From NCBI RefSeq assembly GCF_001677475.2, contig NZ_CP015229.1: a DNA stretch of 64,000 bases. One strand, written 5' to 3'. A program made the position numbers. Origin of the DNA: Escherichia coli. Its GTDB lineage: Bacteria > Pseudomonadota > Gammaproteobacteria > Enterobacterales > Enterobacteriaceae. Positions 29,801-32,800 of this stretch are shown here, in pieces (the first letter of the stretch is position 1; every line of letters starts with the position of its first letter).

Positions 29801-32800
29801 GATATAAAAAAGGCCCGCAAAAGCGAGCCTGGTAAATAAATATGGCGCGTTGTACTGGATTCGAACCAGTGACCGATTGCTTAGAAGGCAATTGCTCTGT
29901 CCGACTGAGCTAACAACGCATGATGCAGATAATGGACCGCCATCGAGGACTTGAACCCCGCACCAACAACCCTGTTATCGTGTCGTCTGCTCTTCCTGAT
30001 GAGCTAATAGCGGTATGTTATGGTGGCCCTTGCTGGATTTGAACCAGCGACCTGGCGATTATGAGTCGCTCGCTCTCACCACTGAGCTAAAGGGCCGGGC
30101 GCAGGATAATAACGGTACGTAACTAATTCTGCAATATCATCCGTTCTGACTGACTAAATCCTGAACTTCCCTGACCGTCGAACCCGACCCCATGAAAAAA
30201 TCTGCAACCAGATCTCCCGGACGACTGCTTGCGCTGATTATCTGCTGCAACATTTCTGCCGGTTTTTCGCACGGATGTTTCCCGGGATAGTACTGCACCG
30301 GTTTATGCGTCCACACATCGGTGTACGGTACCTGCACAGTCACACCGAAATACCGCCGCAAATTTTTATATTCTCTCAGCAGTTCCGTATACTGCCGGTT
30401 CAGTTCACTGTATGTGCTGACCAGCTGGTGGTGTGGCTTTTCCAGTTCCCCGCGTTGATGTTTTTCTGCTGCAACACGCGCAAACAATGCCTGCAGTTTT
30501 CTGTAATCATCCTCGTTCGGTAACTGCCACTGACTGGTACCAAACCAGTGCGACACCATGTTTTTCTTTCCGGTGGCTTCCGCTATCTGTTTTGACGTTA
30601 TTCCCAGTGATTCACGCGCATCACGAAAGTAAGAAATCAGCGGGGCCATGACGTGCTGTTTTAGCTCGCGCCCCTTTGCCGCATAGCCGTCATTTTTGGG
30701 CTGGTATGGCCCCTGATAATGTTCTGCAAACAGAATGCGTTCTGTCGCCGGGAAATACGCCCGCAGGCTTTCCTTGCTGCACCCGTTCCAGCGCCCGGAC
30801 GGCTTCGCCCAGATAATGTGATTCAGCACATTAAAGCGTTCACGCATCATGATTTCGATATCAGATGCCAGGCGATGACCACAGAACAGGTAAAGACTTC
30901 CGGCGGGCTTTAATACCCGCCAGAACTGCGCCAGACACTGGCCCAGCCATTTCAGGTAATCATCGTCGCCCTTCCACTGGTTATCCCAGCCCTCGGGCTT
31001 CACTTTAAAGTATGGCGGGTCTGTGACTATCAGGTCGACAGAGTTTTCCGGTAAGGCCTGGATAAATTCCAGGCAATCAGCGTTGATTAATTCACAACTG
31101 GATATTTTTACAGTATCAACCATAGATCAATAAGCACTTCTCTGATAGGCTCATTCCGCTTTTGCGCAAAGCTGATGGGCCTGAGGTTTGCTTGTGACCT
31201 CAACGCATGAGCAAATGGCTGGCAGGTGCCGCTAACACCCACCAGCCGCCCATTACCACAAATTAAAAAACCTTCACTGCGGAAGGCGTCTGTAACAACC
31301 GAACTGATAATCTGCCAGACCCGCCATAACAAGCTGGGTCAGTATTAACTGGCAACGTTCGTGTGAAAGGTAAGTATTCTGCGCAATCTCCCCGACGGTC
31401 GCCGGTTCGGTGACGCTTAATTCATTAAATACCACTCTGGCGGTTTCGGTCATATCTTGCTGTTTTAGCATGTCTTTTCCCTTTTCCGGTTAACGTGACA
31501 TACCAATAACTCTTGTCGAAAAAGCCAGCAAGCTGAAAGACCAGTATTCGCAACCACCAGCGCGTTTAACGTCCCGTGCCGCTTTCCGGGCACAAAAAAA
31601 ACCGCTCAGCGCGGGTTTAAGCTGTGTGGCAAAGTAACCACTCTTAACACATTACAATAACTTTTGCGTACGCGTTAGCTCTTTTGTATATTTAACTTTT
31701 CTCTAATTCTAAAGGTAAAAGGTAACGACTAGTGAAAGCGAACGACTACCTGTTTGGTCTTCAGGCAAGAAACATCTCTTTCAGGCTTCTTCAAGGCGAA
31801 TTAAAGTATTTTAATATGAAGTCAGCTAGGGGGTGGACAGAGTTGCTATCTGATTATGCAAGTAATAATGAAAAGGATATAATAAATAATCTCAAGGAGA
31901 TTTACCTCAGCCAATTGAATTACAGCAATCGGGCCGTATTTTTTGCTCAACTGAATAATATCACTGACGCAATCCTCTTGAAAAAAACCTTGTTAAATCT
32001 GATTAACAGCAACGATAAAGATTATCAAGAATACATTGCCACCTACCCATTGCCAATAGATAGCGCAACACATAAAAAAGTCAAAAAATTAAGACCAGTC
32101 TGCATCTCCCACTCTCAACATGGTAACTCGATCACTATTACAACAACTTATCTTCGTCCATTCAAAGAAAGAAGTGCAATTGAAACAAATACACTAAGCC
32201 CAGCAACACAAAAAGAACTCAATTGTTTTGATGAAATAATTGGAATAAAAGATAGATACATCCAATGTTTTGACACAATTACTTTTAACTATGTTTCCGG
32301 CGAAATAACATTTGAAATCGACATGTGTACAAATCTTAACCATAATGAATTGGAGCGCGCATCAACAAGATATCGTAGAATATTAATGTACCTTTTCCAT
32401 AAAGAGAATTCATATCACGTCGCCTTCATTAGAAAAAATATATTTACTGCTATCGATAAACTTTACAAATCTGCCGATGGTACCATTTTAAAACTTGGGC
32501 ATGCCACAGGAACAGGCTCAGTAAAAGAAGAAAAAATGAGAAAGAGAAAAGATGATTTAAGGAAGGAAAAATATCATGCCGCAGGCTTAGCGGCAATTGG
32601 AGGAAAAACTAATAACTTTAGTATTTCTAAACAATGGAATGGAGCACACAATAACATTTTAACAATGCATGTACCCGGACATTTTTCTTTAATTTCATCC
32701 TCGCTACCATTTATAAATCATGTTATAATCGAAGGGTGTGTTTGTAAATCAGATTATGAGTTATTGATGTCAAAGGTTTTCTAAATGAATAAGCAGGAAA

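Follow-up and report, generated by a model that had tools for sequence, protein, structure and literature searches.

A probably inactive, in-frame deletion allele of an M.EcoGII-family adenine methylase gene in the late region of a Shiga toxin prophage of Escherichia coli

The stretch of Escherichia coli DNA described here, referred to as the window (64,000 nucleotides of contig NZ_CP015229.1, assembly GCF_001677475.2), carries a lambdoid Shiga toxin (Stx) prophage that is read on the minus strand. Between the antiterminator gene Q and the toxin genes lies an open reading frame (ORF) for a DNA methyltransferase of 328 amino acids (aa). It begins with an ATG at position 31123 and spans 30137-31123 on the minus strand, stop codon included. 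The gene is interpreted as the Stx-phage copy of the M.EcoGI/M.EcoGII methylase family, present as a decayed, pseudogene-like allele with an in-frame deletion (probability roughly 0.8). That it is a solitary late-region methylase gene of the M.EcoGII family is close to certain. The 328-aa product is very probably non-functional as a methylase, to judge from alignments and structure models; the main argument for inactivity is the loss of a conserved core strand and of a cofactor-binding residue.

The ORF is a real phage DNA adenine methylase gene, far beyond chance. Its product matches the Pfam family PF01555 (N6_N4_Mtase) with an E-value of 3.6e-37 and 128.9 bits, above the curated cut-off of 26.7, and thereby belongs to the beta-class amino-methyltransferases. 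The motifs stand in the beta-class order as defined in PMC7544214: motif IV (DPPY), a helical target-recognition domain (TRD), and motif I (FxGxG). DPPY is invariant across an alignment of 36 sequences, and motif I aligns with the FMGSGT loop of M.BceJIV (8urk). In AlphaFold models, the TRD helices comprise residues 146-173, 177-184, 190-194, 204-223 and 231-255, with similar confidence for the intact and the deleted protein. Comparison with M.EcoGII yielded 287 identical residues out of 323 (89%), which places the window protein in the M.EcoGI/M.EcoGII family; the query sequence was taken from Table S1 of the SUPREM paper (PMC11551740) in a machine-read copy with a few reading errors. Relatives of the gene occur in 1,988 of the 5,426 complete E. 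coli genomes, and a single genome holds as many as seven copies. The exact 328-aa protein is deposited at NCBI, among others as ANO90427.1, under the name DNA methyltransferase. An earlier, sequence-only reading of the window had recognized a DPPY-motif DNA methyltransferase at 30137-31123, and both the assignment and the coordinates are exact. It overlooked that the gene is 24 codons short, the cause being an in-frame 72-bp deletion after motif I.

M.EcoGII and M.EcoGI originate from E. coli O104:H4 C227-11 (Murray et al. 2018, PMC5778455). M.EcoGII acts on adenines irrespective of their sequence context and methylates both DNA and RNA. It is silent in the lysogen, and its constitutive expression is harmful (PMC5778455). 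The TRD of M.EcoGII forms a four-helix bundle, and residues 97-140 constitute the dimer interface (PMC11551740). The window gene shares with these enzymes the order of DPPY, helical TRD and FxGxG, the location on a prophage and the solitary state; by analogy, it would likewise be silent in the lysogen. The difference lies in the C-terminus. M.EcoGII has 349 aa and a complete C-terminal subdomain for binding of S-adenosylmethionine (AdoMet), whereas the window allele lacks 24 residues comprising alphaA and beta2 with motif II.

Protein and DNA alignments place the gap directly after motif I, where the window gene is missing 72 bp (24 codons, VKAAMALGRRAIGVELETGRFEQT). Frame and native stop are kept despite the deletion. 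All close relatives encode 348-352 aa, compared with 328 aa in the window. MFDS1022581, the intact relative closest to the window gene, has the 72 bp enclosed by two perfect copies of the 8-bp direct repeat GACGGTCA. The window gene retains a single copy, which is the signature of a slippage or microhomology-mediated deletion. The 24 lost alignment columns contain nine invariant and six near-invariant positions (36 sequences). The Pfam match of the window protein covers profile positions 1-202 of 221, while intact relatives match positions 1-220 at 153 bits, 24 bits more than the window protein.

The AlphaFold model of an intact relative is confident in the C-terminal region (pLDDT, the predicted score of the local distance difference test, 75-93). 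The elements follow in the order strand 305-308, glycine loop, helix 315-322, strand 326-330 and helix 334-351. The lost residues are 317-340 of this protein, that is most of the helix 315-322, the entire strand 326-330, the glutamate E331 and part of the helix 334-351. Thus, helix alphaA, strand beta2, the motif II glutamate following beta2 and the first third of the last helix are removed. In Rossmann-fold methyltransferases, motif II is located on strand 2, and its acidic residue hydrogen-bonds the ribose hydroxyls of AdoMet; permuted DNA methylases have their C-terminus after motif II (PMC1282579). The window protein lacks a complete AdoMet-binding subdomain, consisting of the motif I loop, alphaA, and beta2 with the motif II acidic residue. 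The sequence-only reading had named a loss of catalytic residues on alignment as evidence against its view of the gene. This applies in part: the catalytic DPPY is intact, but the cofactor-binding half is gone.

The intact model matches 46 solved chains of beta-class methylases at E<=1e-3, including M.BceJIV, M.MboIIA, CcrM and M.RsrI. The catalytic Rossmann core is shared with these four and with M1.HpyAVI (Foldseek E 1.8e-12 to about 1e-6), and sequence matches to solved beta-class methyltransferases extend to both core halves. Identity is about 20%, and the solved enzymes differ in being sequence-specific, in serving mostly restriction-modification (R-M) or cell-cycle control, and in having unrelated recognition domains. 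The deleted allele, modelled with the same alignment, reached a mean pLDDT of 51 and a predicted template modelling score (pTM) of 0.35, and pLDDT stayed below 50 throughout the catalytic domain. Confidence in the helical recognition domain is maintained in this model. A search of the deleted-allele model against PDB structures gave no match at E<=1e-3. In the proposed course of events, a slippage-type in-frame deletion between the two GACGGTCA copies would have taken alphaA, beta2 together with the glutamate of motif II and the first part of the C-terminal helix, leaving DPPY, the recognition domain and the glycine loop. Having lost that half of the Rossmann core which binds the cofactor, the protein most likely fails at AdoMet binding or at folding.

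Several observations weigh against a decayed, late-region copy. As a measure of what a deletion does, AlphaFold confidence is not validated; it serves as supporting evidence only, and the model of the intact relative itself reached a mean pLDDT of only 66.6, obtained from a shallow alignment. In the terminator block between Q and the methylase gene (Table 1), which bears on late expression, the stem is short in the window, and its 66-nt segment folds no better than shuffled sequence (z -0.12). A consensus scan for the late promoter pR' revealed no sigma-70 consensus on the minus strand near 31600-31750. With respect to the enzyme, the frame, the native stop and all motifs other than the deleted one are kept, DPPY and FxGxG included, and the allele persists in about 20 assemblies. 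Residual or altered function of the 328-aa allele is possible. These features would suit an allele that is still active, with what remains of the C-terminal helix, together with elements nearby, making up for the loss of alphaA and beta2. Such compensation is unlikely, however, in view of the 15 invariant or near-invariant positions lost, among them the acidic residue of motif II, which in this fold binds the ribose of AdoMet. The lost segment is a core strand plus a helix of the Rossmann sheet, and modelling of the allele no longer yields a catalytic domain. Since the assemblies hardly differ from each other, persistence says little on selection.

A dead protein may also be kept for a non-catalytic role, which appears less likely again. 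It might bind nucleic acid via the helical domain, or form inactive heterodimers with co-resident M.EcoGII-type paralogues and so damp their toxic activity. Beta-class methylases are thought to act as dimers, and MettL14 and the ciliate MTA9 are natural dead partners (PMC7544214). They resemble the window protein in having the beta-class fold in a protein without catalytic competence. In contrast to the window protein, with its intact motif IV, deleted cofactor half and no known partner, they combine an eroded motif IV with an intact fold and a defined partner. The number of family copies per genome, the harm done by constitutive M.EcoGII and a recognition domain modelled equally well in both alleles are in line with a non-catalytic role. 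The proposal is purely speculative, however, and no second copy is present in the 64-kb window. If the catalytic domain misfolds, the dimer interface as mapped in M.EcoGII is unlikely to survive. Rare alleles with in-frame insertions or deletions across the gene suggest random decay and not design. In its pointed form, namely a lineage-fixed deletion allele that acts as a dead beta-class subunit and is kept to bind nucleic acid or to poison dimers of intact M.EcoGII-type paralogues, the proposal is slightly more doubtful still. If true, this would be a phage-borne dominant-negative regulator of a toxic, sequence-independent methylase.

The methylase is a solitary (orphan) gene. It is flanked by a winged helix-turn-helix (wHTH) ORF upstream and a tRNA gene downstream, and no endonuclease is adjacent. 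The absence of a restriction endonuclease partner, claimed in the sequence-only reading, is borne out by these flanks, by the variable cargo of the site upstream and by the independence of the neighbouring cassette. Overlapping frames, in which an adjacent cognate endonuclease would have spoken against that reading, were inspected: seven overlapping or adjacent small ORFs were compared with Pfam, and none had a match at E<=0.1 (sole match cytochrome b559, E 0.23, no matched stretch). PADLOC, applied to five proteins, detected methylase models only and no restriction endonuclease model, and an endonuclease linked as in a Type II R-M system was not found.

The cassette, an AT-rich group of three ORFs, occupies the interval from Q to the terminator block and is oriented in the opposite direction (boundaries about 31640-33870, 33% GC). 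The ORFs of 350, 130 and 221-240 aa belong to phrog_12777, phrog_11490 and phrog_9664, all of them PHROGs of unknown function. No meaningful match was obtained in Pfam, NCBIfam or PADLOC; the only one was a CARF model with E 0.0072 and no matched stretch. The two larger ORFs had no meaningful match among PDB sequences. In the third ORF, a D-x12-EAK string is reminiscent of PD-(D/E)xK nucleases (read by eye). Copies with at least 99.5% identity to the cassette were found in 22 complete genomes of E. coli as well as in seven O145 Stx1a phages, and all but one of the records have the same Q beside it. In strain cq9, the cassette is located beside an intact 352-aa methylase, WP_000024324.1. In the seven O145 Stx1a phages, it is followed directly by stx1, without the methylase. 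EH2201 and 1720a-02 have just about 215 bp between Q and the wHTH gene, while phiP27, WGPS2 and MFDS1022581 carry other cargo at the Q-terminator site (a GIY-YIG gene or other ORFs among the relatives). Methylase and cassette are regarded as separate, since each occurs without the other. As other phages hold different cargo or none at the Q-terminator site, it has the look of a hot spot at which genes of an accessory or defence type are gained.

This distribution bears on a possible restriction-modification or defence pair of methylase and cassette (31732-33839). The cassette is about 600 bp away, its three ORFs are of unknown function, and the motif-like string in the third one could be taken for a nuclease signature. 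A pair is nevertheless highly improbable: the cassette stands next to stx1 without the methylase, the methylase module elsewhere has other cargo or none at that site, and the cassette coexists with an intact methylase in cq9 and with a deleted one in the window. Moreover, a sequence-independent adenine methylase needs no cognate enzyme. The presence of the methylase or its inactivation might also be explained by a nuclease encoded in the cassette, either cognate or dependent on methylation; this idea was rejected on the basis of the cq9 and O145 distribution and of the lack of meaningful matches in Pfam, NCBIfam and PADLOC and, for the two larger ORFs, among PDB sequences.

The deletion is a lineage allele of one Stx2g-like prophage lineage and not an artefact, because the exact protein recurs on 21 contigs, the gene context is the same, and 5.9 kb are identical in another assembly. 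The 21 contigs stem from separate NCBI assemblies and include one of 5.50 Mb; a contig of 5.04 Mb carries the 328-aa gene. Twenty contigs were read and three places displayed. In the two places that reach upstream, Q, the cassette, the wHTH gene, the methylase and stx are arranged as in the window, and 17 further contigs were grouped as similar to one of them. One assembly is 100% identical to the window over the 5.9 kb. Assemblies that carry this prophage include GCA_033692955.1 and GCA_036681075.1. The allele was located elsewhere solely by look-up of the exact protein. The deletion junction had no single-piece match among the best-ranked matches in 5,426 complete E. coli genomes, and no exact match in IMG/VR or GTDB species representatives. 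Although short direct repeats can mislead assemblers, an assembly or sequencing error that conceals an intact gene has a next to negligible probability, given the identical protein on contigs of separate assemblies, those of 5.50 Mb and 5.04 Mb included.

Other very rare methylase alleles carry different in-frame changes (database proteins P0001, P0036, P0084, P0101 and P0111, with one to four member sequences each). The changes are a duplication of 34 aa, losses of about 29-33 aa from the catalytic or the recognition domain, and a truncated C-terminus. These alleles suggest a recurrent, sporadic decay of the methylase gene in prophages. Another gene of the prophage is affected in GCA_036681075.1, where the DnaB-type helicase is split into ORFs of 292 and 155 aa (locus 2141-2654, corresponding to window 34471-35970) in an otherwise near-identical prophage. 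The same helicase is a single ORF in the window and in another locus that was read (L005).

Late expression of the methylase is plausible from its position. A block composed of GTTAAGAGTGGTTACTTTGCCACACAGCTTAAACCCGC, a hairpin and a T run is common to phages with a PF06530-type Q. In MFDS1022581, the 273-aa Q is unrelated, and unrelated sequence replaces the block; the phages are alike from the T run onward. Among relatives, the stem sequence varies with pairing kept. The sequence just past the Q stop is not conserved among phages of the same Q type. Co-variation of the block with the Q type is as expected of a Q-specific qut/pR'-tR' region and would place the methylase in a Q-dependent transcript together with the tRNAs and stx. 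The position of pR' is deduced solely from the co-variation of the 31594-31700 block with Q type. A consensus scan detected no sigma-70-like promoter site between the terminator block and the methylase gene. A strong terminator-like hairpin with a T run is located at 29811-29830 on the minus strand (-14.8 kcal/mol, z -2.83), directly after the tRNA-Arg gene; some 60 nt separate it from the start of stxA downstream. Any transcription unmodified by Q would be stopped there.

In intact phages, the gene would be part of a late operon running from Q through the qut/terminator block, the small wHTH gene, the methylase and the tRNAs to stx. Transcription is expected only after Q-mediated antitermination during induction. 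Blanket N6-methyladenine (m6A) introduced at this stage would shield progeny DNA from many host restriction enzymes. Late expression and the protective role are both inferred, the grounds being the gene's position and the silence published for M.EcoGII in the lysogen. A search of the literature on M.EcoGI or M.EcoGII expression after mitomycin induction, judged by its listing and not by the content of the papers, turned up nothing naming these methylases. Late expression had been proposed in the sequence-only reading as well. The position between a conserved terminator downstream of Q and the tRNAs makes it plausible. The protection of phage DNA or altered host expression, also suggested there, is reasonable for the family (M.EcoGII, PMC5778455) and probably does not apply to the deleted copy.

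The family, the biochemistry of its enzyme and the location of the gene between Q and stx have all been published. The sequence-only reading presented the gene as noteworthy, but gene and position had been described before. A DNA methylase is drawn between Q and the tRNAs and stx in Figure 5 of PMC3491183, 352-aa methylases are listed downstream of Q in Stx2a phages (PMC10462455), and the enzyme of phage 1720a-02 has been named as closely related to M.EcoGII (PMC5778455). Between the terminator block and stxA, the sequence has matches in 308 phage records, most of which (nearly all) are of Stx phages; the gene is annotated there as DNA methylase, starting with L24 of phiP27. The arrangement of wHTH gene, methylase, ileZ and arg tRNAs and stx recurs in phiP27, Stx2a_WGPS2, Stx2_EH2201, 1720a-02, MFDS1022581 and cq9. 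The 'putative DNA methylase' L24 of phiP27 and the 352-aa methylases of Stx2 phages (WGPS2 gp29, EH2201, 1720a-02, strains 11128 and 00-3076) are 90-92% identical to the window protein. They share the position and the series of Q, terminator, 65-aa wHTH protein, methylase, ileZ and arg tRNAs and stx. Unlike the window gene, their copies are of full length, and the cargo between Q and terminator differs (a GIY-YIG gene, other ORFs, or none).

Table 1. Features of the methylase gene and its surroundings (positions in the window).
Feature	Position	Strand	Basis or remark
M.EcoGII-family beta-class N6-adenine DNA methyltransferase gene, deletion allele	30137..31123	-	328 aa ORF; PF01555
Motif IV DPPY, residues 35-38, catalytic/adenine-binding, intact	31010..31021	-	translation
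Helical TRD, about residues 147-255	30359..30685	-	AlphaFold helices
Motif I FFMGSGS, residues 309-315 (FxGxG 309-313), AdoMet-binding glycine loop, intact	30179..30199	-	translation and alignment
Deletion junction, sole remaining GACGGTCA copy; relatives carry 72 bp there	30172..30179	-	DNA alignments
Conserved block ending in hairpin and T8 (31620-31594)	31594..31700	-	probable qut/pR'-proximal region and tR' terminator
Antiterminator Q gene, 115 aa	33870..34217	-	PF06530, E 4.7e-45
AT-rich three-ORF cassette (context only)	31732..33839	+	opposite orientation, between Q and terminator block
wHTH ORF, 65 aa	31274..31471	-	phrog_331, E 3.6e-37; weak DprA_WH match
tRNA, CAT anticodon (ileZ in relatives)	30021..30096	-	ARAGORN; Rfam tRNA, 72.5 bits
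tRNA-Arg (TCT), argO	29843..29919	-	ARAGORN, Rfam, annotation of relatives
stxA/stxB, Stx2g-like toxin operon	28511..29752	-	stxA 29752-28793, stxB 28780-28511

The genes are arranged in the order DnaB-type helicase, 85-aa ORF, Q, cassette, wHTH gene, methylase, tRNA(CAT), tRNA-Arg, stxA and stxB (Table 1). The window Q has a distant match to the Q21 structures 6p18 and 6jnx (E 0.005). The wHTH gene precedes the methylase in every methylase-carrying relative examined (phiP27 L23, WGPS2 gp28, MFDS1022581, EH2201, 1720a-02, cq9). It is named a TrmB-family regulator in the RefSeq record of phiP27, and a terminator-like hairpin (31287-31270) overlaps its stop codon. The wHTH protein could be a controller of the toxic methylase. 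The methylase stop is followed by the tRNA(CAT) gene after 40 nt. When 29600-34400 was scanned with Rfam, only the two tRNAs emerged, with all other matches below threshold. The gap of about 100 nt between the tRNAs (29919-30021, minus strand) corresponds to the argN position of Stx2a phages and is annotated as 'tRNA-OTHER' in RefSeq relatives. ARAGORN made no call there, and the gap is probably a degenerate tRNA. The toxin is nearly the same as the Stx2g of MFDS1022581, with 315 of 319 residues identical in the A subunit and 89 of 89 in the B subunit. The MFDS1022581 prophage has a different Q and no cassette, which indicates that Q, cassette and toxin modules are reassorted between prophages.

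Little is to be gained here beyond a correct annotation. The cargo site between Q and terminator, which differs from phage to phage, is more promising for new functions than the methylase itself. Annotation pipelines name the 328-aa protein a DNA methyltransferase, and a reader may wrongly credit the prophage with self-protection by methylation, although this copy lacks motif II and is probably inert. Progeny phage of the window prophage are predicted to be without the blanket m6A of the M.EcoGII type and would then be less shielded from restriction in new hosts than the phage of relatives, e.g. of the cq9 prophage.

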